Shown piece after piece: positions 29,632-53,124 of a stretch of DNA of 53,136 nucleotides (its first letter is position 1; each line of letters opens with the position of its first letter). Made by a program: the position numbers and the translations under genes. The notes beneath the pieces were generated by a model. That model had not been told where the DNA came from and made no database searches. It was given only the letters and a program-made list of their open reading frames with translations. The DNA is from a virus (taxonomy: Duplodnaviria > Caudoviricetes): positions 1 through 53,136 of IMG/VR virus record IMGVR_UViG_3300037585_000579. One strand, 5' to 3'.

Positions 29632-29795
29632 TACTTTTCTGAACTCTTTTCGTCTGCTTTCCAAGAGTAATCATCCCACTCATTAAGCGCACTGCGAACA
29701 TTACGACCACCCGTAATATCCTGTGCGTATGCATCGCCAAAACTTTTGTTAGTATCCTTTACATGTTCAGGATAACCTTTACCTTTATTCATCAT
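29631..29795 (-). CDS. 54-aa hypothetical protein (not in ORF track)
   Basis: MMNKGKGYPEHVKDTNKSFGDAYAQDITGGRNVRSALNEWDDYSWK...; AGGAG SD in the end of the portal gene. Confidence 0.65.
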   Translation of the reverse strand: MMNKGKGYPEHVKDTNKSFGDAYAQDITGGRNVRSALNEWDDYSWKADEKSSEK

Positions 29796-34774: not shown

Positions 34775-34788
34775 TATTATAACACACT
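34775..34788 (-). promoter_or_regulatory. Late-arm extended -10 promoter motif (leaderless)
   Basis: AGTGTGTTATAATA; TATAAT ends 7 nt before ATG 34769. Confidence 0.7.
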
Positions 34789-36332
34789 TATGCTGCGAAG
34801 TTCCAATAAGTTGAATTCTTTTTCTTTGGCTCGTCTTCCCATTCAGGATCTTCAGGATGTGACAGATGCCATGAGTCCCGTAAATAATGTACAGCCATAA
34901 CCATAGCATCTACCTGATCATCGTGTGCAGCATTGGGAAACTTTAATAACTCGTCTATTAGAGTATCTCCCCACTTCTTCCCCTTGGGTATCCACAGTCT
35001 TCCAGCCTCTATCAAAGGACTTGCAGAATAAACTCTGGATACCTTATCCCTGTCAGGCATATACTCTCGGACAGGCAAACCAGACCTTCGCATATCCTGT
35101 ATCAGAGACTGTCCACTTGCTTTCTTTTCTATAATACAAATATCGGGATGGTGTCTATTATAGAGTTCATGTGCTTTACGCCGTAACTCTGGATACTCAA
35201 ACCTTTCTCTTACATTTCCCAGAAGAATCAGATTAGAAACATAGTCTTCATAACCATCCTCTTCTTCCTGAAACATAGAAAAGATACCCCATGTTTGTAT
35301 AACACTATAATCAGCCGTAGTTTTAGTAGAGAAAGCAGTATCATATGTTTGTATTACAAAGTCACAGGCCGGAGGATCATCATTTTTCCATTCCTGTAAC
35401 CATTGTTTTTTTATTAAACCTCCCTCTTCCGGGGTAGGATCTTGCATATACAATGAGTTCCAATAACGACTACCATTGCTTGCCTTGATCTCATTCTCAT
35501 CTACTCGTAATAGTTTATCTGACTTCCATTCAGGAAAGTAACTTCCTCCCGGTTCCATATCAAGTAATTCAGCCGCTTCTTCATCTAACCATGCAGGTAT
35601 ACGAATAACTTCCCAAGGGAGTGTCTCATACTCATCCATCTCCTGCTGTTGTTTTAGTAACCAACCACACAGATCATCATAATGATAACGAGTATTAATA
35701 ATAACTATAGAACCATTAGGCATAATACGTGTGCGTAAGCCCGCAGGATACCACTCTTTAACATAACGGCGTCCCGCCTCAGAGTAAGAATCCTCCTCAG
35801 ACATCACATCGTCAAGGATAGCTACGTGAGCACCACGTCCTGCAATCTGGGATCTAACACCAGCAGCGTAATACATACCACCATGATTTGTCTTCCACTT
35901 ACCAGCAGCCCGGACATCACTTCGAAGGGAGACACCCTTGAAGATGTTCGTAAACTGTTCTGTATTTACAATATCTCTGACACTACGTCCGAAATCACTG
36001 GATAACTGATCACTATGGGAGACAGTAAGTATCTCATGTTCAGGATTACGTCCAATATACCATGCTGGAAAGAGCTTTGAACATATCACAGACTTGGAAG
36101 AACGTGGTGGCAGAAAGACCATAAGTCTTTTTATTTCACCAGATTCTAACTTTTTTAATTTATTTGATATCACTTCAATATGTTTGCCCATACGCCAATC
36201 AGACACAAGAGTAGGGGCCACTAAACGCACAAAGGTCAGAAAATCATTTTTACTATTTTCTAAAACTTGTGTGGCTAGTAAACTATTAAGTTTTACAAGC
36301 GATACTAGGGAGTCTTTATCATTTTCTATCAT
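34788..36332 (-). CDS. terL: Terminase large subunit
   Basis: LPPRSSKS Walker A, AILDD Walker B, TRYHYDDL, QTYDTAF..ADYS and HDDQVDA nuclease motifs. Confidence 0.95.
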   Translation of the reverse strand: MIENDKDSLVSLVKLNSLLATQVLENSKNDFLTFVRLVAPTLVSDWRMGKHIEVISNKLKKLESGEIKRLMVFLPPRSSKSVICSKLFPAWYIGRNPEHEILTVSHSDQLSSDFGRSVRDIVNTEQFTNIFKGVSLRSDVRAAGKWKTNHGGMYYAAGVRSQIAGRGAHVAILDDVMSEEDSYSEAGRRYVKEWYPAGLRTRIMPNGSIVIINTRYHYDDLCGWLLKQQQEMDEYETLPWEVIRIPAWLDEEAAELLDMEPGGSYFPEWKSDKLLRVDENEIKASNGSRYWNSLYMQDPTPEEGGLIKKQWLQEWKNDDPPACDFVIQTYDTAFSTKTTADYSVIQTWGIFSMFQEEEDGYEDYVSNLILLGNVRERFEYPELRRKAHELYNRHHPDICIIEKKASGQSLIQDMRRSGLPVREYMPDRDKVSRVYSASPLIEAGRLWIPKGKKWGDTLIDELLKFPNAAHDDQVDAMVMAVHYLRDSWHLSHPEDPEWEDEPKKKNSTYWNFAA

Positions 36333-36341
36333 TCTATGTAG

Positions 36342-36355
36342 TATTATAACATACT
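36342..36355 (-). promoter_or_regulatory. Late-arm extended -10 promoter motif upstream of terL
   Basis: AGTATGTTATAATA, identical to the copy at 28991-29004. Confidence 0.7.
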
Positions 36356-36372
36356 TTTTAGAGACATCAAGT

Positions 36373-36409
36373 AAGATTAAGAAAGATTAAGAAAGATAAT
36401 GATAATAAG
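36373..36409. repeat. Short 10-bp tandem repeat in the AT-rich switch region
   Basis: AAGATTAAGA AAGATTAAGA AAGATAATGA. Confidence 0.7.
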
Positions 36410-36595
36410 TTATAAAGATCTTTAGAGACACCTGTAAAATTTAATTATTTTGACCCTTGTATTTTTGGTAAATATGTCTCAGGGGTGATATATATATAAA
36501 AGAAGACACCCAGTTTTTGGCAGGGGGTATATTATTATTATGTATGTGCCTTAGTTTGGCAGATTAAAGGATACCTTACGGTACGCTTCGCTAGA

Positions 36596-36658
36596 CCAAC
36601 GTATGCCGTTGGATCGCACCAACATCGCTGTTGGATCACGCCAGCGAGACACCGCTGG
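36596..36658. repeat. Array of three tandem 6-bp inverted repeats
   Basis: CCAACG-tatgc-CGTTGG, CCAACA-tcgc-TGTTGG and CCAGCG-agacac-CGCTGG, separated by 6-nt linkers. Confidence 0.85.
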
Positions 36659-36695
36659 ACCGTGTTCTAAGAGAGACCTTCCTTGTTGATAGAGC

Positions 36696-36735
36696 GAGGG
36701 ACTGCGCCCCCTCTATTGAGGGGCTACGTTCCCTC
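36696..36735 (+). promoter_or_regulatory. Early-arm hairpin element E1
   Basis: GAGGGA...GC-CCCCTC-TATT-GAGGGG-C...TCCCTC upstream of the first early gene. Confidence 0.7.
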
Positions 36736-36764
36736 TTTTACTTAACCTTCTAGGAGACTACACT

Positions 36765-37148
36765 ATGACTACATCTAACACTGCTACCCAGCTTCAGGGC
36801 TTGGATCTTAACTCGGTTGACCCCAAGACTTTGGTGGGAGTCATCATGGAGCTAAAGGCTAAAGTTGAGGAACTTGAGTCTAAAGGCAAGGCTGACCCCG
36901 GCACTGCTTGGCTCAACACTCCCGGTCCTAACTTCAGGATCTCGGAAGCACAGAAAGCCAACGGCTTCTGGACGGTGACAGACATGATCATGGACCAAGA
37001 CTATAAGAAGGGAGACGTCATGACTGTAACTCTTTGGAAACCATCAGAGAAAGCTCCCAATACTGCCATTGGGCGCTTGACTACTCAGCCCAAATGGACG
37101 GGAGAGGAACCTGTGGCTACTGACGACGACGATCTGTCAGTACTTTGA
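36765..37148 (+). CDS. First early gene, hypothetical with acidic C-terminal tail
   Basis: AGGAG SD; short coiled coil; ends DDDDLSVL. Confidence 0.8.
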   Translation: MTTSNTATQLQGLDLNSVDPKTLVGVIMELKAKVEELESKGKADPGTAWLNTPGPNFRISEAQKANGFWTVTDMIMDQDYKKGDVMTVTLWKPSEKAPNTAIGRLTTQPKWTGEEPVATDDDDLSVL

Positions 37149-37155
37149 TCTAACT

Positions 37156-37177
37156 GGGAGGGGCTTCGGTCCCTCCC
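37156..37177 (+). terminator. Stable cUUCGg hairpin (terminator or stabiliser)
   Basis: GGGAGGGGC-TTCG-GTCCCTCCC; poor U-tract. Confidence 0.55.
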
Positions 37178-37196
37178 TAACCTTTAGGAGTTTAAC

Positions 37197-37376
37197 ATGA
37201 GAGCAATATTCGCAGTATTTCTAGTTTTGGTTGGTGTGTTCCTTGTTGTAAGTGGGATGCACTTATACGATCCTGCTAACCTGCCGGGATACGTTGGGTA
37301 TGTAGTAGGAGCAATGCTTTCAATCATGGGCATATGCTCTGCACTGGCAGGTACTTTGCTGCTAAGTAACAACTGA
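37197..37376 (+). CDS. 59-aa two-TM membrane protein (not in ORF track)
   Basis: AGGAG SD; MRAIFAVFLVLVGVFLVVSG...YVVGAMLSIMGICSALAGTLLL. Confidence 0.75.
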   Translation: MRAIFAVFLVLVGVFLVVSGMHLYDPANLPGYVGYVVGAMLSIMGICSALAGTLLLSNN

Positions 37377-37382
37377 AGAGAC

Positions 37383-37410
37383 AGGAGGAGCTTCGGCTCT
37401 TCCTTTCTTT
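37383..37410 (+). terminator. Intrinsic terminator
   Basis: AGGAGGAGC-TTCG-GCTCTTCCT-TTCTTT. Confidence 0.8.
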
Positions 37411-37703
37411 AAAGTTTGTATCCTAACCTATAAAAAAAATACATTTAATTGTATTTAACACTCAATTATATATCTTAACCGTTAAAAAAGACGCACTAAT
37501 CTGTGTAATTCGTCCCCTTTACGTGTGTGTTGCATAATAAACCACCACCGTAATAATCTAACCAATCTATAAAGACTAACAAATACAAGGGACTAATAGC
37601 TGTTGTATATATATCACACTATCAAACTGATTTATATATTCTCATCATCTATGTGTAGCCTGAAGAGTATCATGATGATAGCTTTGACGAACTCTCTCGC
37701 TTT

Positions 37704-37733
37704 TGAAACACCCACTTCGTTGAGGGCGTTTCA
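37704..37733 (+). promoter_or_regulatory. Early-arm hairpin element E2
   Basis: TGAAAC-A-CCC-ACTTCGTTGA-GGG-C-GTTTCA. Confidence 0.6.
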
Positions 37734-37765
37734 TCCGCTTACTGTCTATCTATAGGAGATATAAT

Positions 37766-38125
37766 ATGTCATTTGATTTAGTTGTTGCTGGCAGTAGAGA
37801 CTTTATGCATTATGCTTTGTTAGAGAAGACATTGGATAAACTGTTAGTGAACAGGGTTGATGAAGGTGTAAGAATAATAAGTGGAACAGCTAGAGGGGCT
37901 GATGAGTTAGGACAAATGTATGCAGATAATAAAGGCTATGATGTAATACTAAAGCCAGCTAAATGGAATCTGCATGGTAGGTCAGCAGGATATAAAAGAA
38001 ATGTAGAGATGGCAGACATAGCTGATGCTGTTATATGTTTCTGGGATGGTAGATCCAGAGGCACTAAGCATATGATAGATATTAGTGAGTCAAAGGATAT
38101 ACCATTACGTGTAATAAGATTTTAA
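37766..38125 (+). CDS. SLOG-family protein (YspA/DUF2493-like)
   Basis: VAGSRDF, ISGTARGADELG, AGYKRNVEM and FWDGRSRGTKHMI. Confidence 0.85.
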   Translation: MSFDLVVAGSRDFMHYALLEKTLDKLLVNRVDEGVRIISGTARGADELGQMYADNKGYDVILKPAKWNLHGRSAGYKRNVEMADIADAVICFWDGRSRGTKHMIDISESKDIPLRVIRF

Positions 38126-38134
38126 TAATCGCTC

Positions 38135-38161
38135 CAACACCCCCCTCTTCGAGGGGCGTTG
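38135..38161 (+). promoter_or_regulatory. Early-arm hairpin element E3
   Basis: CAAC-ACC-CCCCTC-TTC-GAGGGG-C-GTTG. Confidence 0.7.
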
Positions 38162-38216
38162 TCGCTTCTCATACTTACTTTATCTTAAGGTTCGTAGTCA
38201 AGACATGACCTCTTGT

Positions 38217-38384
38217 GGAGAGTCTGGTTGAGTTTATGTTGAAATTCCATGCACTGTTTCAACAGGGTAGTCTTAAAACAGATGAGTGCGAGACAGACAT
38301 CTGGCTGCATCTGGATCGTGGTCGTTCCAAGCTTTGCAGTATTAATCAACTACCTAACAGAGGGTTCAATTCCCTCTCTCTCCA
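38217..38384 (+). ncRNA. tRNA-like ncRNA A (168 nt)
   Basis: GGAGAG/CTCTCC-A acceptor, AGAGGG-TTCAATT-CCCTCT T-arm, internal helices TGTTGAAA/TTTCAACA and GGGTAG/CTACCT. Confidence 0.7.
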
Positions 38385-38400
38385 TCTTACTTTATCTTAT

Positions 38401-38522
38401 GGAAAGTCTGGTTGAGTGAATGTTGTAAACCTATGAAGGCATGACTATCATGTTGGAGGTCTGTACAATGCAACAAGGTGAGTACAGTCACCTAACAGAG
38501 GGTTCGATTCCTTCTCTTTCCA
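38401..38522 (+). ncRNA. tRNA-like ncRNA B (122 nt)
   Basis: GGAAAG/CTTTCC-A acceptor (compensatory change relative to A), AGAGGG-TTCGATT-CCTTCT T-arm, helices TGTTGTA/TGCAACA and AGGTGA/TCACCT. Confidence 0.7.
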
Positions 38523-38545
38523 GCTTACTTATAAGGATATACAAG

Positions 38546-38746
38546 ATGAACAACTTTTATACTGGATACATGTCCGCTGATAAAGATCTCAGAGAAGCAA
38601 TTCAAAATAATCAAATAGGTTGGCTCAATAAAGCATTAAAAAGTTTCGATAACGATCCCCCAAATAGTTCTTTTCAGGAAGGATATAAACAACTACTCAT
38701 TGAAGAATTTAAAATGAAAGGATTAAAAGATGAGTTTAGATTATAG
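38546..38746 (+). CDS. Hypothetical early protein
   Basis: TAAGGA SD before ATG 38546; FDNDPPNSSFQEGY. Confidence 0.65.
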   Translation: MNNFYTGYMSADKDLREAIQNNQIGWLNKALKSFDNDPPNSSFQEGYKQLLIEEFKMKGLKDEFRL

Positions 38747-38885
38747 AATTGAAAATGCCAGAGAAGATATGTTCTGGAGTTTCTTTGATGAGATTCGAAA
38801 AGAATTAATAGCTGATGGCATGGCTGAACTAGAAGCAGACATACATGCAAAAGAGATGGCCGAGGAGAAGTTAGATGGAATATGA
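38730..38885 (+). CDS. 51-aa acidic early protein (not in ORF track)
   Basis: AAGGA SD; MSLDYRIENAREDMFWSFFDEIRKELI... Confidence 0.6.
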   Translation: MSLDYRIENAREDMFWSFFDEIRKELIADGMAELEADIHAKEMAEEKLDGI

Positions 38886-39051
38886 TTTTAAATCAATGGC
38901 TCAACCTATCTTAACTATTAAAGAGTTTAAAGAGCTACAAGAAATGAAAGGTATAGAACTATCTCAAACTGATTTGTTCTTAACATATAATAAATATATA
39001 ACACATGCAAAAAAATTCAATAAAGCTTATGGAGATATAGAAAATGTCTGA
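38875..39051 (+). CDS. 58-aa early protein (not in ORF track)
   Basis: GAGGAG SD; MEYDFKSMAQPILTIKEFKELQEM... Confidence 0.6.
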   Translation: MEYDFKSMAQPILTIKEFKELQEMKGIELSQTDLFLTYNKYITHAKKFNKAYGDIENV

Positions 39052-39241
39052 CTATGCACAGAACGAAAAAGATTTTCAAGAGAGAGTATTTGATTATCTT
39101 GATGAACTAAGAGAGCTTGGAGTAACTAATATGTTTAGTGCTACTCCATATATTACTTCTGTTTTTAGTGTTGATAAATTTGAAGCAGGTAATCTTTTAG
39201 AAAATTGGATGAAGACATATCCAAGAAAGAGGAACCAATGA
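39044..39241 (+). CDS. Hypothetical early protein
   Basis: GGAG SD; FDYLDELRELGVTNMFSATPY motif. Confidence 0.7.
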   Translation: MSDYAQNEKDFQERVFDYLDELRELGVTNMFSATPYITSVFSVDKFEAGNLLENWMKTYPRKRNQ

Positions 39242-39738
39242 AATGGGTAGTACTGCTGATAGTTGGTTTAGCTATAGCAGTTTATTTTAATCCTGTAAAA
39301 GCAAGCAAAGGATTAACAGATGAAGAGTATGAAGAAAGACGATGCTTAGTAGAAGCTATATACTTTGAAGCTAGATCAGAGTCAATACTAGCACAGCTTG
39401 CAATAGCTAATGTAATACTTGAACGAGTTAAGTTAGCAAACTTTCCCAACACAGTATGTAAAGTAGTAAAACAAGGACGGTATTATAAAGGCCATCCAAT
39501 ACGACATAAGTGTGCGTTCTCTTACTGGTGTGATGGTAAGTCAGAGAAAATGTACAACAATAAAGCTAAACAAAATGCTATAAAGGTAGCAGCTATGGCA
39601 GCCAGTGGTATTTTTGTAGATCAAACGCTTTATTCTACACACTATCATGCTACTTATGTTAATCCTTACTGGGCATCTAACGAAAGGTTTAAAATTGTTG
39701 CACAAATAGACTCACATATATTCTATATACAACATTGA
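39238..39738 (+). CDS. Cell wall hydrolase (SleB/Hydrolase_2 family)
   Basis: CLVEAIYFEARSE, FPNTVCKVV, AFSYWCDG and HYHATYVNPYWA; N-terminal signal/TM. Confidence 0.9.
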   Translation: MKWVVLLIVGLAIAVYFNPVKASKGLTDEEYEERRCLVEAIYFEARSESILAQLAIANVILERVKLANFPNTVCKVVKQGRYYKGHPIRHKCAFSYWCDGKSEKMYNNKAKQNAIKVAAMAASGIFVDQTLYSTHYHATYVNPYWASNERFKIVAQIDSHIFYIQH

Positions 39739-39765
39739 AGACCGTGATTGGTCAAAGGATAAATT

Positions 39766-39972
39766 ATGTCTGAATTAACACAAGAAGAATGGGCTAAACG
39801 TCGTACAAAAGATTACAATTATCATGTTGAAAAGTGCAAGACCCATAACCTGCCACCAATGGATTGGGAAACATATAAACATTGGTTCGATAGTAGGGAT
39901 ACGACTGAAACAAACCATCAACGGGTTGAGGAACTATTATTTAAACATAATTTACGCAACATGAAAAGGTAA
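39766..39972 (+). CDS. Hypothetical early protein
   Basis: AAGGA SD, 68-aa ORF. Confidence 0.55.
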   Translation: MSELTQEEWAKRRTKDYNYHVEKCKTHNLPPMDWETYKHWFDSRDTTETNHQRVEELLFKHNLRNMKR

Positions 39973-39978
39973 ATAAGT

Positions 39979-40179
39979 ATGAAATTAACTAGAGAACAAA
40001 GGATAGCATTAAAAAAAGTTTATGATAGAGAATGGAATAAACCTGATAGCTACCTAACTTTTCGTCGGACAGTAATACCGGAAATATGTGGTGATGCAGT
40101 CATGGTTCCTTTTGTTAATATGTGGTTATATATAGAACTTAATGGGTATACACTGCAATATGAAAAGGTAATACAATGA
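39979..40179 (+). CDS. Hypothetical early protein
   Basis: AAGGT SD; LTREQRIALKKVYDR...SYLTFRRTV. Confidence 0.65.
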   Translation: MKLTREQRIALKKVYDREWNKPDSYLTFRRTVIPEICGDAVMVPFVNMWLYIELNGYTLQYEKVIQ

Positions 40180-40391
40180 AAACCTATAGAGTATCATGGC
40201 TAAAGGGTAGACGTGCAGGAGCGCAGGGTAAACACTATCCTGATAGTGTGGTAGTACAGGCAGAGAATGAAAAAGCTGCACACTTAAAAGCATATGAGAC
40301 ACACGAACATCTAATGTGTGTAGACATAACAGAAATAGACAAGCCAAGGACAGTTGAAAACAATATAGATCGACAACGCCCCCTCTCTTGA
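40176..40391 (+). CDS. Hypothetical early protein
   Basis: ATGA coupling; stop lies inside hairpin E4. Confidence 0.6.
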   Translation: MKTYRVSWLKGRRAGAQGKHYPDSVVVQAENEKAAHLKAYETHEHLMCVDITEIDKPRTVENNIDRQRPLS

Positions 40392-40402
40392 GGGGCGCTG
40401 TC
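40372..40402 (+). promoter_or_regulatory. Early-arm hairpin element E4
   Basis: GACA-A-CG-C-CCCCTC-TCTT-GAGGGG-CG-C-TGTC. Confidence 0.7.
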
Positions 40403-40435
40403 TCTCTCTGAAATCTTAACCTATGGAGATATGAT

Positions 40436-41209
40436 ATGTTTGCTACTGATTTATTAAAAGAACTAAAGACAGAACGTCAAGTATATTTAGTAACACCAGA
40501 AGATAAATTATATTATGCCCTTGAAATAATTCATTGTAATAGAGAAGTACCCCAAAGCAATATTAATGCCTTGAAAAAATCTATTGAAAAAAATAACGCA
40601 CTGTATCTAAAACCAATAACAATAGATAATAAATACAATATCATTGATGGTCAGACAAGATACAGAGCTTGTCAAGAACTTAATATGCCTTTCTATGTGG
40701 ACATTGTAGACTCAATGGAATGGTCTAATGAAGATCTTATATCTATTAATACAACACAACGTAACTGGAAGCTGGTAGATTACTTACATTATTATGTAAA
40801 ATTTGCTATGAACCCTTATGTAGTTTTTCAAACATTCCTTGATTCACATAAACATATTACAATACAAATGTTAATTGCTATATTTAATAATACAAGTCAC
40901 AGAAATTGTTTAAATAGTAAAGCATTTAAAAGCGGTGAACTAAAATATGATAATAGAAATAAAACTAATATATTGAAATGGCTTGCTTGGTTGGAAGAAA
41001 TAAATACAGCTCCAATTTATCCATCATTGGATAACAGGACAAAAAGAAACCAAGAGTTTCAAACATCATTGCTTAAAAAGTTTCAATCTCCTAATTGGGA
41101 TAACTGTAAATTTATTAGACTGTTATCTGAATATCCTCATCAATTAAATAAACTAAAAAGAATAACTGACTTTGATCAGGAAATAGAAAATATTTATATG
41201 AGTGCCTGA
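40436..41209 (+). CDS. ParB/Srx N-terminal domain protein
   Basis: NREV...ALKKSI, PITID and IIDGQTRYRAC. Confidence 0.75.
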   Translation: MFATDLLKELKTERQVYLVTPEDKLYYALEIIHCNREVPQSNINALKKSIEKNNALYLKPITIDNKYNIIDGQTRYRACQELNMPFYVDIVDSMEWSNEDLISINTTQRNWKLVDYLHYYVKFAMNPYVVFQTFLDSHKHITIQMLIAIFNNTSHRNCLNSKAFKSGELKYDNRNKTNILKWLAWLEEINTAPIYPSLDNRTKRNQEFQTSLLKKFQSPNWDNCKFIRLLSEYPHQLNKLKRITDFDQEIENIYMSA

Positions 41210-41211
41210 TC

Positions 41212-41243
41212 GGTAAAGACCCCTTCTTGTGAGGGGTCTTTCC
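41212..41243 (+). promoter_or_regulatory. Early-arm hairpin element E5
   Basis: GG-T-AAAGACCCCTT-CTTGT-GAGGGGTCTTT-CC. Confidence 0.7.
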
Positions 41244-41262
41244 CTCTCTATGGAGAAAAATA

Positions 41263-41388
41263 ATGTGCGATGATGACGATAAAACTTTATATAAAGAAGC
41301 TATTGATGATCTTTTCGGTGCCCACATTACAGGTGCAGAGTTAGAAATCTTAGCAGCTTATCTTGCAAAGTTAAGAGAGGAAAAATAA
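41263..41388 (+). CDS. 41-aa protein (not in ORF track)
   Basis: GGAG SD; MCDDDDKTLYKEAIDDLFG... Confidence 0.55.
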   Translation: MCDDDDKTLYKEAIDDLFGAHITGAELEILAAYLAKLREEK

Positions 41389-41610
41389 ATGGAATACCGA
41401 GTAACGAAAAAAAGTCTTCAGAAAAAAGTAGATCTTTTAAATAAAAAAATAAGAATAAATGCTTTAAAGGTTGAGCTAGATCATGCCGCATGTTATGGTG
41501 GCTATGCTTTAATAGACTATGATGGATCGCATCACCTTACACCCCGTATGGCACCAAGAGAAATGAATCAGTATCTTGAAGGTGCATTAGATTGGATAAC
41601 AGCAGAATGA
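41389..41610 (+). CDS. Hypothetical protein
   Basis: GAGG SD; abuts neighbours. Confidence 0.6.
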   Translation: MEYRVTKKSLQKKVDLLNKKIRINALKVELDHAACYGGYALIDYDGSHHLTPRMAPREMNQYLEGALDWITAE

Positions 41611-41643
41611 ATGCTTGGTGGGATATTCTTGATGGAGATGACA

Positions 41644-41868
41644 ATGGTTCAAACTAAGGTACATGTAAATCAACATGTAATTAAAGCTAATCGTAAATCA
41701 GGAAAAAAAGATCCTGTATTAACTGTAAAAACTTATAAGAGTAATACATATGCAAAAGAAGTTTATATAACAGGACCATGTACAGTAAAATATAGTCCTG
41801 ATAAACCACTCTCTTGTGGTGCACAGGTCTGGATACATACCGAATCTGAAGTGGAGATCATAGAATGA
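41644..41868 (+). CDS. Conserved phage hypothetical protein
   Basis: VHVNQHVIKAN...YSPDKPLSCGAQVWI; GGAG SD before ATG 41644. Confidence 0.7.
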   Translation: MVQTKVHVNQHVIKANRKSGKKDPVLTVKTYKSNTYAKEVYITGPCTVKYSPDKPLSCGAQVWIHTESEVEIIE

Positions 41869-41877
41869 AAGATAAAG

Positions 41878-42057
41878 ATGTCTAAGATAATGAACTGGAT
41901 GATGAGCGTGGAAGATTTTGTAAATGGGTACTCTTATGGTGGTATGAATGATTACACTGTTGATGAAGTAGTAGAAGATGTTGACATGTATTTTAAGTCT
42001 GGTGAAGCAGTGAAGTATGCTCGACGGTATATGGAAAAACAAATGGAAGAAAGATAA
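41878..42057 (+). CDS. 59-aa acidic protein (not in ORF track)
   Basis: MSKIMNWMMSVEDFV...; TAATG coupling to the next gene. Confidence 0.6.
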   Translation: MSKIMNWMMSVEDFVNGYSYGGMNDYTVDEVVEDVDMYFKSGEAVKYARRYMEKQMEER

Positions 42058-42470
42058 TGAACTCAGATAAATTTAAAAGATTTGTATTAGAATCATGGTA
42101 TGCTGGTATGGCTGCAAGAGATATAGCAAACAGCCCAACAGCTAAACAACTATACGCTGAAAATTCATCAAGAAATTTAACAAGAAATGCTATCATTGGT
42201 ATCATTAATCGTAATGGTGGAGCATTTAAAAAAGGTATGCAATCTGAAATTTATCAAAATGAAAATAAAGAAAAAATTTCTTTAGCTAAACAAATAGAAG
42301 AAGCACGATTAAAAATAAGAATGAAAAAAGGAAAGAATAAATATAGAGAACGTAAGTGTTTAACCTGTCAAGAAAAAAGTATAATGGAAAAGAATATGTT
42401 TATATGTAGAAGATGTAAAGAAAATAATATAAGATATGGAAGTGTAGATAGCTACAAAGTTCACATATAA
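42057..42470 (+). CDS. GcrA-like transcription regulator with C-terminal Cys4 zinc finger
   Basis: SWYAGMAARDIA...LTRNAIIGIINR resembles the GcrA N-terminal HTH (W.EG.SA..IA...TRNAVIG..HR); CLTC...CRRC. Confidence 0.7.
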   Translation: MNSDKFKRFVLESWYAGMAARDIANSPTAKQLYAENSSRNLTRNAIIGIINRNGGAFKKGMQSEIYQNENKEKISLAKQIEEARLKIRMKKGKNKYRERKCLTCQEKSIMEKNMFICRRCKENNIRYGSVDSYKVHI

Positions 42471-42476
42471 TAGTTC

Positions 42477-42506
42477 GGTAAAGCCCCTTTCAACGAGGGG
42501 CTTTCC
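42477..42506 (+). promoter_or_regulatory. Early-arm hairpin element E6
   Basis: GG-T-AAAGCCCCTT-TCAAC-GAGGGGCTTT-CC. Confidence 0.7.
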
Positions 42507-42527
42507 CTCACTTCAATGGAGATTGAT

Positions 42528-42731
42528 ATGGCTATACCTAAGTTTAAAACAAAACAAGAAATTCTTGACTATGCTTTTAATGGTTCTGATCATTGGATTG
42601 TACCTATGATAAGACATAAGATTGAGCAAAGTGGTGCTTCTTTAAGTGTAGTTGATGTTAATAATTACATTGACAGAGAACTTAAATCTTTTCAAAACGA
42701 CTATGACGAGTGGTTAGATAATCATGGCTAA
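42528..42731 (+). CDS. Hypothetical protein
   Basis: GGAG SD before ATG 42528. Confidence 0.6.
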   Translation: MAIPKFKTKQEILDYAFNGSDHWIVPMIRHKIEQSGASLSVVDVNNYIDRELKSFQNDYDEWLDNHG

Positions 42732-42867
42732 AAAATCTACAAGCACATACGATCCTAATTTAAATCGGATTAAAAAAAGAACATCAATAGGATATAGTGT
42801 CAGATCCAAACCTAATAATAAAAGTAAAAGACTATCTTGGAAAAAATATAGAGGACAAGGTAGATGA
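42724..42867 (+). CDS. 47-aa basic protein (not in ORF track)
   Basis: MAKKSTSTYDPNLNRIKKRTSIG...KKYRGQGR; ATGA coupling to the next gene. Confidence 0.65.
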   Translation: MAKKSTSTYDPNLNRIKKRTSIGYSVRSKPNNKSKRLSWKKYRGQGR

Positions 42868-43091
42868 TTGAAGATACTACATGGTTAGTAGAAAACTATT
42901 GTAACGAATGTGAAGATGGTAAAGTATATAATAATATGGTAACATCTACAGGTCGAGACTGCTCTGAGTGTGATGGTACTGGTCACATAGAAAGAACAGT
43001 GACAATGTATGAAACAGAATATGAGGTGAAAGAAGATTATCCTGAAGCAATTAAAGTTATAAAGATCCATTCGGCTCGTCCCCTCTTTTGA
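42864..43091 (+). CDS. Small zinc-finger protein (DnaJ-type CxxCxGxG-like)
   Basis: CNECEDG...CSECDGTG. Confidence 0.65.
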   Translation: MIEDTTWLVENYCNECEDGKVYNNMVTSTGRDCSECDGTGHIERTVTMYETEYEVKEDYPEAIKVIKIHSARPLF

Positions 43092-43101
43092 GGGACGATC
43101 C
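43073..43101 (+). promoter_or_regulatory. Early-arm hairpin element E7
   Basis: GGC-TCGT-C-CCCTC-TTTT-GAGGG-ACGA-TCC. Confidence 0.7.
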
Positions 43102-43127
43102 TCATTCATAACTTAAAGGTAAAGACA

Positions 43128-44102
43128 ATGCAAATGTTTGATCACAGTCAAATTGAATTTAACGTAGATACTTTTAATATTCCTGATGTACCTGAAGAAC
43201 TTGGTAAAGTTCTTAAACGTACTGATACAGGACAACCTCTTGCTATAGTATCTAAAGACTACACACCAGTTCAATATATAGATATTGTTCAAAACATTGA
43301 AGAAGCTTTAACGATAGCATCTCAAGATGAATCTACAAAACTTGATCTAACTGACACAGAATTTACTATTGATGTACTAAATGAAGGACAACAGCTAGAA
43401 CTTAAAGCTAAGTTTCACGGACAAGAAACTTTTCTTGATGGTGGTGAAGGCTTTTTAGGAAAAGGTAAAAGTGAATTGATTATTCCTGAGTTTGTTTTTC
43501 GTACATCACATAACAGAACATGGGCTAACAATGGTATGATGGGTGTATGGCGTTCTAAATGCTGGAACACTCTGGTAGCTGGTAACAAGCTTGCCCATGT
43601 ATATGGAAGACACAGTAAGAACTTTGATCTTGTTGGCTTTGCAGGAAAAATTGGTACAGCTACTAAATTTATTAGTGGTGATGGTATTAATCAAATGAAA
43701 AGATGGTATAATACACCTGTACATCGTGAATCAGTTATTAGTTTATTTAAAAATACAATAGCTAAACGTTTTGATAATGTTGAAAGAAAGAACGTTGGCA
43801 ATAAGGTTATGCTCTCTAATCTTATGAAGATTTTCGATGAAGAAAGCAGACACATTACTGGTCGTGGTGCTTATCAAAAGTACGGTACAAATAATGGAGG
43901 AACGTTATATAATGTGTACAATGCTGCTACTTATTGGTCTTCTCATCCTAGTTTAATGTCACATAAAAGTGGTGGTACTTTTTATCAAGGTAAGGATACC
44001 AAAGACATTAAAGAAAATCGTAACACTGTGAAGCTTAGAGAAGACAGAGTATCAGATATGCTTATCTCTAACCAATGGAAAGAATTAGAAATGATTACAT
44101 AA
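43128..44102 (+). CDS. DUF932/DUF945-like protein
   Basis: RTDTGQPLAIVSKDYTPVQ, RSKCWNTL and TLYNVYNAATYWSSH. Confidence 0.7.
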   Translation: MQMFDHSQIEFNVDTFNIPDVPEELGKVLKRTDTGQPLAIVSKDYTPVQYIDIVQNIEEALTIASQDESTKLDLTDTEFTIDVLNEGQQLELKAKFHGQETFLDGGEGFLGKGKSELIIPEFVFRTSHNRTWANNGMMGVWRSKCWNTLVAGNKLAHVYGRHSKNFDLVGFAGKIGTATKFISGDGINQMKRWYNTPVHRESVISLFKNTIAKRFDNVERKNVGNKVMLSNLMKIFDEESRHITGRGAYQKYGTNNGGTLYNVYNAATYWSSHPSLMSHKSGGTFYQGKDTKDIKENRNTVKLREDRVSDMLISNQWKELEMIT

Positions 44103-44112
44103 AGGATGCAGA

Positions 44113-44316
44113 ATGTCATATATTTTAGTAGAGTGTTGTCCAGATGAGATTGGTTCCGGTGTCCTTGACACTATTAATCCAATGACCAACGATGCCGGAA
44201 CCAAGGTTGAAATTTTTAAAACAGAACAAGATGCTCTTAAAGTTTTATACAATCTTCGATCATTCGTTTGTGAAGATACTTGGGATATGGATATAATTAT
44301 TGAACGTATCCATTGA
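44113..44316 (+). CDS. Hypothetical protein
   Basis: AAGGA SD, 67 aa. Confidence 0.6.
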   Translation: MSYILVECCPDEIGSGVLDTINPMTNDAGTKVEIFKTEQDALKVLYNLRSFVCEDTWDMDIIIERIH

Positions 44317-44340
44317 CTTTTTTGTTGACAGTGCTATATA
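44313..44340 (+). promoter_or_regulatory. Putative sigma70 promoter for the replication module
   Basis: TTGACT-N16-TATATA with TGn extension; a second TTGACA at 44325. Confidence 0.5.
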
Positions 44341-44385
44341 GAGTATGTTAGAACTTGTTAGTCATTATAACTTGAAAGGAATACG

Positions 44386-44841
44386 ATGACTGTAATATCA
44401 GGTACTGCTTATTGGGCTTCTATCTCGCAGCCCAACACCACATTTGAACCATGCTGGACTATCGATGTAAGTCTGGATGCTGAAAACCTTGCTAAAGTTA
44501 AAGACGATGGGTTGTCAGTAAAAAACAAAGGCGATGAACGTGGTGATTTTGTAACTATTAAGCGTAAAGTAGAAGGAAAGAATGGTACTAATCAGGCACC
44601 AGAACTTGTAGATTCTATGCGTCAAGCAATGTTTAATACATTAATTGGTAATGGATCTAAAGTTAATGTTCTTTATCGTCCTTATGATTGGACTTGGAAG
44701 AATAAAGAAGGCAAGTCTGCCGATCTACAGAAGATACAGGTTACTGAACTTGTACCTTATGCATCAGAAGATAGTGAGGATTTCGATGTAGTCGAGTCTG
44801 GTTACACATCTGATGATGATGATATTCCTTTTGCATCATAA
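44386..44841 (+). CDS. ssb: Single-stranded DNA-binding protein (T7 gp2.5-like)
   Basis: IGNGSKVNV, LQKIQVTELVPY and acidic tail DDDDIPF. Confidence 0.8.
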   Translation: MTVISGTAYWASISQPNTTFEPCWTIDVSLDAENLAKVKDDGLSVKNKGDERGDFVTIKRKVEGKNGTNQAPELVDSMRQAMFNTLIGNGSKVNVLYRPYDWTWKNKEGKSADLQKIQVTELVPYASEDSEDFDVVESGYTSDDDDIPFAS

Positions 44842-44849
44842 CCTGAAAG

Positions 44850-44879
44850 GGGGGGTCACGTTCTGTGACTCCCCATTTT
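44850..44879 (+). terminator. Hairpin/attenuator after ssb
   Basis: GGGGGGTCAC-GTTCT-GTGACTCCCC-ATTTT. Confidence 0.6.
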
Positions 44880-44882
44880 CCC

Positions 44883-45749
44883 ATGCCTAAAAAAAATATT
44901 AATAATCTAGTCAAAGATATCTATAGTCTTTTTGATGATGGTAGTTTAAATAAAAAACAACTTGAAGAACTACCAAAACATTTAAATAAATTTACTGAAG
45001 AAGTTTCTAGTCAGATTGCATTATCTCTTTGTGAAGATAGAAAAGATGATAATAAATTAAGATTGTCTGCTATAGGAAAACCTAATCGACAGCTATGGTA
45101 TAGGTCTAATCTAAAACAAAAAAGAAATCCTTTACCTCCTTCCACAAAAATTAAATTCTTATATGGTCATATCCTTGAAGAGCTTCTTCTTCTCCTTACC
45201 CGTGTTGCAGGTCATACTGTAAAAGAAACTCAAAAAGAATTAGATATACAAGGTATTAAAGGACATCAAGATGCTGTAATAGATGGTGTCTTAGTTGATT
45301 GTAAAAGTGCTTCAGGAAAAAGCTTTGAAAAGTTTAAACAAAACAAGCTTTATGAAGACGATCCCTTTGGATATATTTCTCAGATATCTGCATATGCTCA
45401 AGCAAATGAAGTAGATGAGGCTGCATTTCTTGCTATAGATAAATCAACTGGTGAAATATGTTTAACTCCAGTACATTCAATGGAAATGATTAATGCTACA
45501 GAACGTGTGCAATACCTTAAAAGAATGGTGTCAGCTAATAGTGTACCTGATCGGTGCTATTCTGATATACCTGATGGTAAGTCTGGCAACTATAAGCTTC
45601 CTATTGGTTGTATTTATTGTGACTATAAGCGAGAGTGCTGGTCAGATGCTAATGATGGTCAAGGACTTCGTGTGTTTAATTATGCACAAAATAAAAGATA
45701 TCTTACAAAAATAGGACGACAGCCAGAGGTTGAAGAGCTAACAGAATAA
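44883..45749 (+). CDS. Cas4/RecB-like PD-(D/E)XK exonuclease
   Basis: LRLSAIGK, GHQDAVIDGVLVDCKSAS, YISQISAY and CIYCDYKREC. Confidence 0.8.
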   Translation: MPKKNINNLVKDIYSLFDDGSLNKKQLEELPKHLNKFTEEVSSQIALSLCEDRKDDNKLRLSAIGKPNRQLWYRSNLKQKRNPLPPSTKIKFLYGHILEELLLLLTRVAGHTVKETQKELDIQGIKGHQDAVIDGVLVDCKSASGKSFEKFKQNKLYEDDPFGYISQISAYAQANEVDEAAFLAIDKSTGEICLTPVHSMEMINATERVQYLKRMVSANSVPDRCYSDIPDGKSGNYKLPIGCIYCDYKRECWSDANDGQGLRVFNYAQNKRYLTKIGRQPEVEELTE

Positions 45750-46468
45750 TGCATTGGACTTACAATAAAAAAGTAAAACCAAATCCTGATAAGTATTTTG
45801 GTTTTGTCTATAAGATTACTAATAAAAAAACAAAGCAAGCTTATATAGGATGTAAACAATACTTTGTAAAAAGAAATGGAAAGACTGTTGTTTCTAACTG
45901 GAAAGAATACATGGGGTCTTCTAAAGCTTTGCTTGAAGATATTAAAAAGATAGGAAAGAAAAATTTTACATTCGTATTAATAGATCAGTACGAAAATAAA
46001 AGAACAATGAAATACTATGAACTTCATTATCAAATTAAGCTTGGAGTTCTTATAAAAATACTTGACGGTACAGATAAATATGCCTACTATAATAATTATG
46101 TTGGAGGAAGGTTTACCCGACCAATTAAAGGAGCAGAAGAAATGGTAGAAATTGATAAAGAAAAACAACTTCTTACCAAGCAAGTTAATTCATTGAAAAG
46201 ACAGCTAAACCGTTATAAAAAAAGGATTGATATGTTGACTAAAGATTTAGAAAAAGTTAATGGAATTTCTGTTGATAAATCATGGAAAGTTGAAAAACAA
46301 AATGAAAATGTAATAGACTTTGAAGCTTACAGAAAAAAAGTAAATACAAGCAAAGAAGAATACAATGCACTAAATGAATTTATGATTGAGTGTGGTTATG
46401 ATCCTTATGATGTTGAAGATACAGCAAAGTTTTGGAATGATCTTGAAGAAGGTAGCGAATTTAGTTAG
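45749..46468 (+). CDS. GIY-YIG (Seg-like) endonuclease fused in frame to a coiled-coil C-part
   Basis: FGFVYKITN...AYIGCKQ, WKEYMGSS and YYNNYVGGRF; internal AAGGAG-N8-ATG at 46142. Confidence 0.7.
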   Translation: MHWTYNKKVKPNPDKYFGFVYKITNKKTKQAYIGCKQYFVKRNGKTVVSNWKEYMGSSKALLEDIKKIGKKNFTFVLIDQYENKRTMKYYELHYQIKLGVLIKILDGTDKYAYYNNYVGGRFTRPIKGAEEMVEIDKEKQLLTKQVNSLKRQLNRYKKRIDMLTKDLEKVNGISVDKSWKVEKQNENVIDFEAYRKKVNTSKEEYNALNEFMIECGYDPYDVEDTAKFWNDLEEGSEFS

Positions 46469-46654
46469 ATGTCTAAAAATATTTGGCAAAAAGAAAGAAA
46501 ACAAATTTTTAAAGAACTTACTTCTCAATATAAGAACGAGGGGTATGACTCTAAAACTGCAAAGAAACTTGCCAAAGAAGAACTACAAGATATGGTAGCT
46601 GATCAAAATGAATTTCTACAAAATATTCAAAATGATATTGATGAGTATAGTTAG
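46469..46654 (+). CDS. Hypothetical protein
   Basis: 61-aa ORF, EGYDSKTAKKLAKEE. Confidence 0.6.
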   Translation: MSKNIWQKERKQIFKELTSQYKNEGYDSKTAKKLAKEELQDMVADQNEFLQNIQNDIDEYS

Positions 46655-46655
46655 T

Positions 46656-46694
46656 TCGGTCAACACCCCCCCTCTGTGCGGGGGCGTTGCCCGA
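46656..46694 (+). promoter_or_regulatory. Early-arm hairpin element E8
   Basis: TCGG-T-CAAC-ACC-CCCCC-TCTGTGC-GGGGG-C-GTTG-C-CCGA. Confidence 0.65.
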
Positions 46695-46891
46695 TGAAAA
46701 ATATTTGGAATATGCATCTTAAATATGATAAAAAAGAAAAAATAATAGAATCTTTTAATACTTATAAAGATGCTAAAGAAGCTCTTGATTCTCGATATCT
46801 ACTTTGGTATCATTTAGGATCTGATCCAAAGTTTAAATACACTATTAAAAAGGCTAAGACTAATGACGGAAACACTAATTACTGTTTATAA
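46694..46891 (+). CDS. Hypothetical protein
   Basis: ATG directly at the end of hairpin E8. Confidence 0.55.
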   Translation: MKNIWNMHLKYDKKEKIIESFNTYKDAKEALDSRYLLWYHLGSDPKFKYTIKKAKTNDGNTNYCL

Positions 46892-47054
46892 AAGAGAAGG
46901 AAGACAAAGCCCGATAGTTACTTTTGAAGAAAACTTTAATAAGCTTGAGAGAGTTGATCAAATTGAATTTTTAATATCTATGGAAAAAGAGGTAGTAGCT
47001 AAAAGAAAAAACATCACTGATGAAATGTTTAAATACAGCAAAGGAAAATGGTAA
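46863..47054 (+). CDS. Hypothetical protein
   Basis: 63-aa ORF overlapping the primase start. Confidence 0.55.
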   Translation: MTETLITVYKREGRQSPIVTFEENFNKLERVDQIEFLISMEKEVVAKRKNITDEMFKYSKGKW

Positions 47055-48700
47055 TGGCCGAAGGCTGGTTATCAAGAGGTCCATGTCTTGACTGTGGATC
47101 AAGTAACGGGAATGTCCAACATAGCGATGGGCATTCCTTTTGTTTTGTTTGCAATACACGTTTTTCTAATAATGAGGATTCTTACATGCAATCTAATACT
47201 ACAACACCAGCGTCACCTTCATCACTTAAAAGTGCAGGGTATTTAGCAGCACTTACTGATCGGAAAATTTCAGAGAACTCTGCTAAAGTTTATAATACAT
47301 TTGTAAATGATAATGGAGGCACGGATCAAAGCCATCATATCTATAAATACTTTGATAAAGATGGTGAGCATATAGCATCTAAGGTTAGAAAAACAGAAAG
47401 CAAAGACTTCTGGGTTGAAGGTGATTTATCTAAAGCTGTTCTGTTTGGTGAGAACTTATTCGGTAAAGGCGGAAAGTATGTCACCGTAGTAGAAGGTGAG
47501 CTTGATGCTATGAGTGCTTATGAATTGCTTGGATCAAAGTGGCCTGTAGTATCTGTAAAGAATGGTGCACAGGCAGCAGCTAATAACTGTAAAAAATCTT
47601 TTGATTTTCTTAATAGCTTTGAAAATATTGTTATATGTTTTGATAACGATAAGCAAGGTAAAGATGCAGCCGAAGATGTAGCCAAGTTATTCGAGCCTAA
47701 CAAATGTCGTATTGTTAATCTTGATCTTAAAGATGCCAATGAATATCTTCAAGTAAATCAACGAGAAAGATTTACAAAGTCATGGTGGAATGCTGAACCA
47801 TATACTCCTGCTGGTATTATTAACCTTGGCTCTTTTGGTGACGAACTCTTTGAAGAAGATTACTGTGATACTTGTCTATATCCTTGGGAAGGCTTGAATA
47901 AGAAAACATATGGTATCCGTACTGGAGAGCTTGTATGCTTTACATCTGGCGCTGGTATGGGTAAGTCAAGTATTATCAGGGAGCTTGCTCACCATCTATT
48001 AAAGAATACTAAAGATAATATTGGCTTCTTTGCTTTAGAAGAGAGTGTGAGGAATACAATATTTCATCTAATGTCTGTTGAAGCTAATGCTAGACTTTAT
48101 ATTAAAGAGATTAGAGATCAACATAGTTTAAATGATTTAAGAGAATGGCGTGATAAGACCACAGGAACTAATAGGTTTTTTGCTTTTGATCACTTTGGTA
48201 GTGTTAGTAACGATGAAATCTTAAATCGTGTTCGCTTCATGGCTAAAGCTATGGATACAAAGTGGGTGATATTAGATCACCTATCTATCTTAGTATCTGG
48301 TCAGGAAGATAACGGAGATGAACGTAAGTCCATTGATATATTAATGACTAAGCTAAGATCTTTAGTTGAAGAAACAGGTATATCTTTATTGTTGGTAAGC
48401 CATCTGAGAAGGCCAATGGGTGATCGTGGTCATGAAGATGGTAGAGAAGTATCTCTGTCTCATCTACGTGGTTCAGCAGCTATTGCACATCTATCTGATT
48501 CGGTAATAGCTTTAGAACGTAATCAGCAAGCCGATGATCCTATCGAAGCAAACACAACTGTATTACGTGTATTGAAGAATAGGTATACTGGAGATACTGG
48601 TGTAGCTGCCTACTTGCATTATGATAGTGAAACTGGTAGGATGACTGAGATAGATCGCACCGAACAAGAAGAGGACGATGAATATGATCAAACCCTTTGA
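47048..48700 (+). CDS. T7 gp4-like DNA primase-helicase
   Basis: Zn finger CLDC...CFVC, TOPRIM EGELDAMS and CFDND, Walker A SGAGMGKS, ILDHLS, LRGS and KNRYTG. Confidence 0.95.
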   Translation: MVMAEGWLSRGPCLDCGSSNGNVQHSDGHSFCFVCNTRFSNNEDSYMQSNTTTPASPSSLKSAGYLAALTDRKISENSAKVYNTFVNDNGGTDQSHHIYKYFDKDGEHIASKVRKTESKDFWVEGDLSKAVLFGENLFGKGGKYVTVVEGELDAMSAYELLGSKWPVVSVKNGAQAAANNCKKSFDFLNSFENIVICFDNDKQGKDAAEDVAKLFEPNKCRIVNLDLKDANEYLQVNQRERFTKSWWNAEPYTPAGIINLGSFGDELFEEDYCDTCLYPWEGLNKKTYGIRTGELVCFTSGAGMGKSSIIRELAHHLLKNTKDNIGFFALEESVRNTIFHLMSVEANARLYIKEIRDQHSLNDLREWRDKTTGTNRFFAFDHFGSVSNDEILNRVRFMAKAMDTKWVILDHLSILVSGQEDNGDERKSIDILMTKLRSLVEETGISLLLVSHLRRPMGDRGHEDGREVSLSHLRGSAAIAHLSDSVIALERNQQADDPIEANTTVLRVLKNRYTGDTGVAAYLHYDSETGRMTEIDRTEQEEDDEYDQTL

Positions 48701-53095: not shown

Positions 53096-53124
53096 TTGAC
53101 AAATCATATAAGAGGTAGTATAAT
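53096..53124 (+). promoter_or_regulatory. Consensus sigma70 promoter
   Basis: TTGACA-N17-TATAAT. Confidence 0.85.

Follow-up and report, generated by a model that had tools for sequence, protein, structure and literature searches.

In T4-type phages, promoter-early stem-loops (PeSLs) are small intergenic repeats found mainly in the variable early/ORFan region, with a layout described as an upstream stop codon, a stem-loop with G/C tracts, a Shine-Dalgarno (SD) sequence, and a start codon, an early promoter being included in the element; the indels and replacements that distinguish close relatives have their ends at these elements, and recombination between copies shuffles genes (PMC2839356; PMC4122927). 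Mini-circles delimited by PeSLs have been reported as well. Here, we describe a family of eight hairpins in the early arm of an HTVC103P/HMO-2011-like marine podovirus, known from the IMG/VR record IMGVR_UViG_3300037585_000579. The window analyzed is the entire record, 53,136 bp, estimated to be ~90% complete, so that ~10% of the genome is missing. As with PeSLs in the accounts just mentioned, these hairpins are intergenic stem-loops with G/C tracts located in a hyperplastic early region upstream of ORFans (8/8), the indels and replacements of relatives are bounded by the elements (block ends at 6/8), and copies recombine (a chimera in the metagenome locus L230). Unlike PeSLs as they are presented there, a sigma-70 promoter is not part of the element, the order is poly-C and then poly-G with a fold favored on the bottom strand, and the host and phage family are unrelated. 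Our tentative interpretation is that they are PeSL-like junction repeats, which may be sites of crossover and may fold as DNA of the bottom strand.

Other systems also offer points of comparison. The early region of phage T7 carries related, irregular RNase III hairpins between its early cistrons and in the first-gene leader, a short distance ahead of SD sequences. The promoters of the N4 virion RNA polymerase are hairpins with 5- to 7-bp stems and 3-nt loops that form on the template strand and need a giant virion polymerase. Integron attC sites and repetitive extragenic palindromes (REP) are imperfect hairpins with extrahelical bases, active as one specific DNA strand and located at the 3′ boundaries of cassettes or genes. 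We know of no account of how early expression is organized, or how ORFans are acquired, in HTVC103P/HMO-2011-like podoviruses.

The eight hairpins listed in the initial annotation were all confirmed at their coordinates and in a single orientation (Table 1, where they are numbered #1 to #8), and an unbiased local-fold scan of both strands also picked them out as compact intergenic stems. Stems are 11 to 16 bp long and carry a conserved apex of 16 to 20 nt, approximately CCCCTC-TYTT-GAGGGG. The CCCCTC-loop-GAGGGG core that had been attributed to the whole family is literal in only three hairpins (36708, 38142, and 40380; three in the window versus none expected from 100 shuffles), and the other five have variant apices of the types CCCCT..AGGGG, CCC..GGG, and CCCCC..GGGGG. 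The reported A-C mismatch and bulged C are both real, while TCGG precedes four of the eight hairpins. A C/T-rich tract follows seven, #8 being followed instead by TGAAAAATAT, and U-tails are likewise lacking at seven, the exception being #1, which has TTTTACTT and is flagged by a terminator scan. The family is also distinct, as proposed, from the G-first cUUCGg-type hairpins at 37156, 37383, and 25890 (minus strand), which constitute a separate class.

A covariance model with a 14-bp stem was built from an alignment, A2, of the eight window hairpins and 26 copies from relatives (34 members). With filters off, it gave eight plus-strand matches of 32 to 51 bits spanning 36689-46709, whereas the next-best plus-strand match reached 12.7 bits and lay on a cUUCGg terminator; the late arm yielded no match, in agreement with the initial annotation. 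Because the eight hairpins belonged to the training set, what is informative is that nothing else in the window matched. The alignment also supports the claim that the lower stems vary and yet stay paired. Paired cells amounted to 72.2% compared to 61.6% in shuffles, and the covariation score was 0.256 compared to 0.134, a value attained by 0/500 shuffles; 11 of 15 pairs vary on both sides, and slid registers give lower scores.

To search relatives, the metagenomes were scanned with the DUF932 protein (43128-44102), which returned 80 loci (loci are designated by L numbers throughout). The 17 related marine loci L218-L234, with a DUF932 identity of at least 66%, contained 73 gene-sense model matches and five weak reverse matches, each overlapping a stronger forward match, while the 63 loci with a DUF932 identity of ≤53% had no model match. 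The orientation was gene-sense in 81/81 strong matches (8 in the window and 73 in relatives). By primase, the family was found in contigs at least 90% identical to the window, plus the more divergent L199, and had no match in any of the 65 loci L019-L083 (primase ~63 to 70% identical). No comparable hairpin family was present in the early region of HTVC115P. None of the hairpins matched Rfam at the gathering score, nor at E ≤ 1 over 36400-47100, and no start-site motif shared by the hairpins was conserved. A pattern scan of IMG/VR for a CAAC..GGGG core was discarded as a source of members, the matches listed being mostly unrelated GC-rich palindromes; among those listed, true members occurred only in low-GC contigs of this clade. 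The hairpins therefore form a single family, specific to this lineage, of imperfect GC-clamped palindromes in a fixed orientation, and the model matches, distribution, and covariation together support the earlier proposal of a dedicated signal, restricted to the early arm, that combines structure and sequence.

The gene map of the early arm consists of tightly packed gene blocks separated by gaps, with one family hairpin per occupied gap. Eight gaps contain a family hairpin and three contain a G-first hairpin (37156, 37383, and 44845). All family hairpins lie within 36.7-46.7 kb, and none is found in the replication or late modules. The constant relation is with the downstream gene, the next start codon lying 0 to 29 nt from the hairpin end with a C/U tract and an SD sequence between them; #3 is the exception, being followed by ~300 nt without a convincing ORF. 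Location at or just after a stop codon, as first described, applies to six hairpins, in which an ORF ends 0 to 12 nt upstream or inside the hairpin. Since #1, which heads the early arm, and #2, which comes after a terminator and a 300-nt AT-rich stretch, have no upstream gene, only 6/8 could serve a preceding gene as its 3′ element. Folds of the hairpin-to-start region, in which sequestration of the SD by the C/U tract was considered, leave the SD regions partly open. A hairpin-plus-T terminator scan was passed only by #1 (plus strand) and #4 (minus strand), the other tails being C/U- or A/U-mixed; with a U-tract directly past the stem wanting at 7/8, the hairpins are not canonical intrinsic terminators, and a terminator reading in general is weakened. 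A sigma-70 promoter scan found 64 promoter-like sites versus 66.4 expected on both strands, an association at chance level, and a −10-like hexamer (5/6 consensus positions, judged by eye) lies ≤10 nt upstream of three of the eight hairpins, with a matching −35 in none. In the ORF-poor stretch after #3, positions 38342-38384 gave sub-threshold Rfam matches (tmRNA 3′ end, E = 0.022; a plastid 3′UTR model, E = 0.035), and ARAGORN detected no tRNA there.

The imperfections of the stems are not equivalent on the two strands. Plus-strand mismatches (A.C/C.A and pyrimidine-pyrimidine) correspond to G.U (G.T) and purine-purine oppositions on the minus strand. With RNA parameters, #2, #3, #4, and #8 of the window are more stable as the minus strand by 4.3 to 10.2 kcal/mol, and the other four differ by ≤1.2 kcal/mol in either direction; with DNA parameters, the minus strand is favored in 8/8, by 0.4 to 7.3 kcal/mol, and two G-first hairpins of the same arm favor the plus strand. 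The comparison was extended to 61 distinct family sequences from the window and metagenome relatives. The minus strand was more stable in 49 of them, with six ties and six favoring plus, under RNA parameters, and in 58, with one tie and two favoring plus, under DNA parameters. Non-apical G.U pairs numbered 62 in minus folds versus 8 in plus folds. As controls, 77 other local hairpins of the plus arm mostly favored the plus strand (55, compared to 19 favoring minus), and the minus bias was absent from a sister hairpin family (apex GTTCT[TA]ACGAAC). Parsimony-polarized substitutions in 3.6 to 3.9 kb of adjacent coding DNA from three triplets were strand-symmetric (G>A plus T>C, 63/47/133; C>T plus A>G, 62/50/125), and the wobble asymmetry is therefore not a mutation bias. 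In addition, individual positions alternate between states that a minus-strand helix would be expected to connect via a G.U intermediate; A.C interchanges with A-T at the #4 site and with G-C at the #8 site. A fixed-register count on A2 gave 42 A.C and 30 G.T cells, close to balance because two apex columns are register artifacts of the bulged C, and was replaced by the fold-based counts. Pairing in the stem is thus maintained on the bottom (template, minus) strand and not on the mRNA strand. With its background and mutation-bias controls, this wobble-asymmetry test offers a general means to find the selected strand of an intergenic palindrome.

These counts bear directly on an alternative that we consider unlikely but still worth weighing, namely that the hairpins punctuate the sense mRNA, being RNase III- or RNase E-dependent processing sites, 3′/5′ stabilizers, or leaky attenuators in a polycistronic early transcript. 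Their layout suits such a role, as they are intergenic, occur one per gap, and are followed by a C/U tract, an SD sequence, and a start codon, and the plus-strand RNA still folds at −12.6 to −23.2 kcal/mol. The T7 RNase III sites are likewise irregular hairpins between early genes and in the first-gene leader, the first T7 site thereby matching #1 and #2, and the replication genes of this phage are T7-like. Some mismatches are moreover conserved while their neighbors covary, as for a required internal loop. However, the wobble asymmetry runs in the reverse direction, contrary to the background of the arm and with mutation bias providing no explanation; the mismatches are lost in the perfect-stem lineages (L004, L221, L222, and L234); and a U-tract is absent at 7/8, with no match in Rfam. 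The helices are also shorter than the roughly two helical turns of RNase III sites and, unlike those of T7, pair better on the antisense strand. RNase III cleavage, processing, or antitermination, as raised in the initial annotation, is weakened by the wobble pairs on the opposite strand and by stems of only 11 to 16 bp.

The metagenome relatives also reveal exchange between hairpin copies. The public runs used were assembled contigs, one of them from a low-share oligo-dT RNA run, and uncovered parts and contig ends near hairpins were not counted as evidence. The orthologues of #3 and #8 both read CAGC...GCTG in the L199/L229/L232 lineage and both read CAAC...GTTG in the window lineage, with the A.C and T.C mismatches retained in all of these copies; such identical double changes at two sites 8.5 kb apart point to gene conversion. 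At the #8 site, L011, L226, and their relatives carry a #4-type core that is one loop base off the core of #4 in the window, and the #4, #6 (L104/L218), and #7 (L004/L199) sites share the apex CCCCCTCTCTTGAGGGG. The clearest case of exchange lies in L230 (3304-3640), where two hairpins 283 nt apart agree exactly in the 5′ flank and arm. The second is chimeric, being of the #3 type from its 5′ flank through the loop but having the 3′ arm and flank of the hairpin that follows the SLOG gene in L232, the join falling within the apex. The complete #3 copy and the chimera flank a novel 225-nt stretch, and the L230 genome lacks both the SLOG gene and hairpin #2.

The early arm as a whole is very plastic, with strain variants in metagenome contigs that lack segments. 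Variants were found without hairpin #2 and the SLOG gene (window 37648-38121), without three small genes upstream of #4 (39735-40364), and without #5 and the small genes downstream of it (41203-41848). Homology-block ends or strain joints in the metagenome contigs lie ≤12 nt from 6/8 hairpins, an example being the block 40366-41251, which extends between #4 and #5 and includes the ParB-like gene. Overall, 9 of 67 block-end clusters are at family hairpins, on 4.8% of the bases. From these comparisons, the hairpins are shown to be repeats that evolve in concert, and their conserved apex has served as a crossover point for the exchange of early gene cassettes. The earlier suggestion of recombination joints that shuffle early gene cassettes is directly supported by the chimera, the core and apex swaps, the parallel compensatory changes, and the block ends at 6/8 hairpins, but not by joint frequency, as joints are not commoner there than at other gene junctions.

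Table 1. Positions, gene context, model scores, and predicted fold energies of the early-arm hairpins, with the copies of the sister-lineage family. Window hairpins are on the scale of the record; energies are given as plus strand / minus strand.
Feature	Position	Strand	Gene context and stem features	Model score (bits)	RNA fold	DNA fold	Block ends or insertion points
#1	36696-36735	+	Leader of first early gene (ATG 36765); upstream gene absent	37.6		−9.6 / −10.0	
#2	37699-37738	+	Between 300-nt AT-rich non-coding stretch and SLOG gene (ATG 37766); A.C mismatch	32		−5.6 / −8.1	
#3	38131-38165	+	Directly past SLOG gene stop; two A.C-type mismatches, G.U on minus strand	45.4	−15.5 / −25.7	−5.5 / −9.1	
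#4	40367-40407	+	Precedes ParB-like nuclease gene (ATG 40436); upstream ORF ends at apex TGA	51.2		−10.4 / −12.2	Block ends 40364-40368
#5	41212-41244	+	Between ParB-like gene stop and ATG 41263	39.9		−9.8 / −11.9	Block ends 41203, 41241, 41251
#6	42472-42512	+	Between 137-aa gene stop (42470) and ATG 42528	50.2		−9.3 / −11.5	L104/L218 insertion point 42510-42522
#7	43069-43105	+	Precedes DUF932 gene (ATG 43128); upstream ORF ends at apex TGA	46.8		−8.0 / −10.1	L013/L093 insertion point 43063-43066
#8	46656-46694	+	Past stop at 46654; next ORF start 46694 or 46712; T.C and A.C mismatches	43.4	−22.6 / −28.2	−9.8 / −17.1	
Sister-family copies	L040 149, 425, 1623, 1886, 2981; L038 3464, 13713; L035 9436; L049 4450	Gene-sense 9/9					

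Taken together, the interpretation that we favor, while giving it somewhat less than an even chance, is that of PeSL-like junction repeats acting as crossover points and folding as bottom-strand DNA. Each early-gene block is headed by one orientation-fixed hairpin, and copies recombine at the conserved apex, where early gene cassettes have been exchanged as in the T4-type PeSLs; by analogy, the elements may work as junction and crossover modules. Since pairing is kept on the minus strand, we infer that selection has favored folding of the bottom DNA strand (or of an antisense RNA) over that of the mRNA; this DNA would be single-stranded when exposed in replication or recombination. Among the proteins encoded in the arm are a Gp2.5-like annealing protein (44386-44841) and a Cas4-like exonuclease, which could anneal such short repeats, as well as a GIY-YIG endonuclease, a ParB-like nuclease (40436-41209), and an HTH-like protein of 137 amino acids (42057-42470). 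The block-heading position, the exchange between copies, and the pairing on the non-mRNA strand provide concrete, testable sites for cassette shuffling in uncultured phages. They further raise the possibility of a strand-specific DNA signal beyond the few systems known (N4 promoters, attC, and REP).

Several observations weigh against this interpretation. The family members are mutually related, and a hand tally of independent origins gave only ~12 for A.C-type pairs versus 5 for G.T-type pairs. The plus strand is favored in a few members (L004 838 and L228 262), stems are perfect in several lineages (L004 1-27, L221 2, L222 1558, and L234 6841), and the energy models for mismatches and loops are approximate. 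The block ends show no excess at the hairpins relative to gene junctions, as 9 of 26 junction-associated clusters are at family hairpins, which hold 8 of 28 slots. Four of the six indels examined change the genes beside a hairpin and leave the number of hairpins unchanged; crossover may therefore be a by-product of repetition and not a function. Furthermore, the evidence consists of assembled contigs only, and the analysis identified no enzyme as a reader of hairpins on the bottom strand.

In a different reading of the strand bias, the hairpins would be template-strand single-stranded DNA (ssDNA) signals, following an N4-like promoter or attC-like cassette-capture logic, for an enzyme not recognizable from sequence. 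We regard this as improbable, and the related proposal of template-strand hairpin promoters or another attC-like ssDNA signal read by an unrecognized phage or host enzyme as no more likely. The favored template/bottom-strand fold, the single orientation at 0 to 29 nt before start codons (leader positions included), the restriction to the early arm, the conserved apex on a variable lower stem, and the existence of a separate family in each lineage are all consistent with such a signal. Like N4 promoters, the hairpins precede early genes in one orientation, with the template strand favored by an asymmetry built into the sequence, and like attC and REP, they are imperfect, show a strand preference, and form homogeneous, lineage-specific families. 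The N4 analogy put forward in the initial annotation accordingly fits in strand bias, position, and orientation, whereas the RNA polymerase gene it would need was not found in the ~90% complete record. In addition, the stems are far longer than those of N4 hairpins, and a conserved start-site motif is absent. They are conversely far shorter than attC, and AAC...GTT occurs in only three to four of the eight; unlike attC cassettes, those gained or lost here do not each have their own hairpin, as the indels mostly neither add nor remove a hairpin together with a gene. If this reading were true, such ssDNA-signal logic would belong to a podovirus group with relatives among the most abundant phages of the ocean.

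The search for a reading enzyme covered polymerases, recombinases, and transposases. PHROGs and Pfam revealed no RNA polymerase among the large late proteins, and none of these contains a DxDxD motif. The RNA polymerase family PF00940 had no match in the record, but its control also matched nowhere and the result is uninformative; for this reason, and because ~10% of the genome is missing, the absence of a polymerase is not proven. A 1445-amino-acid protein of the virion arm (4305-8642, minus strand), which belongs to no Pfam or PHROG family, was examined as a candidate hidden RNA polymerase and rejected, with nothing polymerase-like by homologues, alignment, PDB profile, protein atlas, or Pfam at E ≤ 10. 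Its nearest protein-atlas clusters carry LPD38/LPD3 polyvalent-protein domains, its alignment with 24 homologues contains a conserved Walker-A-like GYLKKGKT and a TDD motif (read from the consensus), and its profile had no PDB match; it looks like a polyvalent LPD-type protein with a P-loop-like motif. The tyrosine recombinase domain PF00589, whose control matched in 14/14 genomes, had no match in the record, so that no integron integrase (IntI) gene was found, and neither the Y1 (RAYT) transposase PF01797 nor an RNase III gene was present in it.

It is also doubtful that the hairpins are polar insulators, in which a minus-strand RNA hairpin would halt or destabilize leftward antisense transcripts before they reach the late operon, the weaker plus-strand version letting early transcription pass. 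Strength and tails are indeed asymmetric in the same sense, the sequence past the stem being A/U-rich on the minus strand and C/U-rich on the plus strand; the late operon starts ~340 nt beyond #1 on the minus strand, and #4 scored as terminator-like on that strand. However, seven of the eight hairpins have no real minus-strand U-tract, and promoter-like sites are at chance level on both strands. A 14-nt late promoter motif, AGTRTGTTATAATA, has exactly three copies (28991, 34775, and 36342), each in the late arm and in minus-strand orientation. The early arm has no minus-strand copy, and its single near match, with two mismatches, is on the plus strand; the motif would therefore not be a source of antisense transcripts. 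Finally, selfish or neutral palindromic repeats (similar to REP or miniature inverted-repeat transposable elements), spread by gene conversion in the only available non-coding space and without a phage function, would account for the lineage-specific turnover of families, the concerted evolution and chimeras, and the 5′ TCGG conserved at 4/8, but are an improbable explanation given the strict orientation (81/81) and fixed distance to the next start codon, the lack of a transposase in the record, and the compensatory changes and strand-specific wobble pattern, which imply selection on the fold.

The remainder of the genome follows a simple plan. The late arm occupies the minus strand from the terminase large subunit (34788-36332) and the portal (29785-32394) down to ~3135, while the early and replication arm begins at 36765 on the plus strand. 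The latter continues with a T7-like primase-helicase (47048), a family A DNA polymerase (49145), a ribonucleotide reductase (51300), and a tRNA-Arg (53010). Directly 3′ of this tRNA gene, at the record end, is a perfect sigma-70 consensus, TTGACA-17-TATAAT (53096-53124). The closest cultured relatives by primase are the Pelagibacter phages HTVC115P, HTVC103P, and HTVC104P, with 45 to 47% amino acid identity, for which the describing preprint reports only the replication module and an HMO-2011-like structural module (10.1101/2019.12.14.876532). A megablast of 36000-46800 against GenBank phages gave no match, and in a limited literature search none of the papers listed brought pelagiphages and stem-loops together.

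Other hairpins in the arm and in related lineages differ from the family. The G-first hairpin at 44845-44880, between the genes for the Gp2.5-like protein and the Cas4-like exonuclease, is conserved (L196 6090 and L093 2209) and has its G.U pairs on the plus strand, as would be expected of a sense-RNA element and opposite to the pattern of the family. Some sister lineages (primase ~65% identical) carry the different, orientation-fixed GTTCT[TA]ACGAAC hairpin family used above as a control, with variable lower stems of 12 to 14 bp, and several of its copies are located directly 3′ of TATAAT-like boxes.

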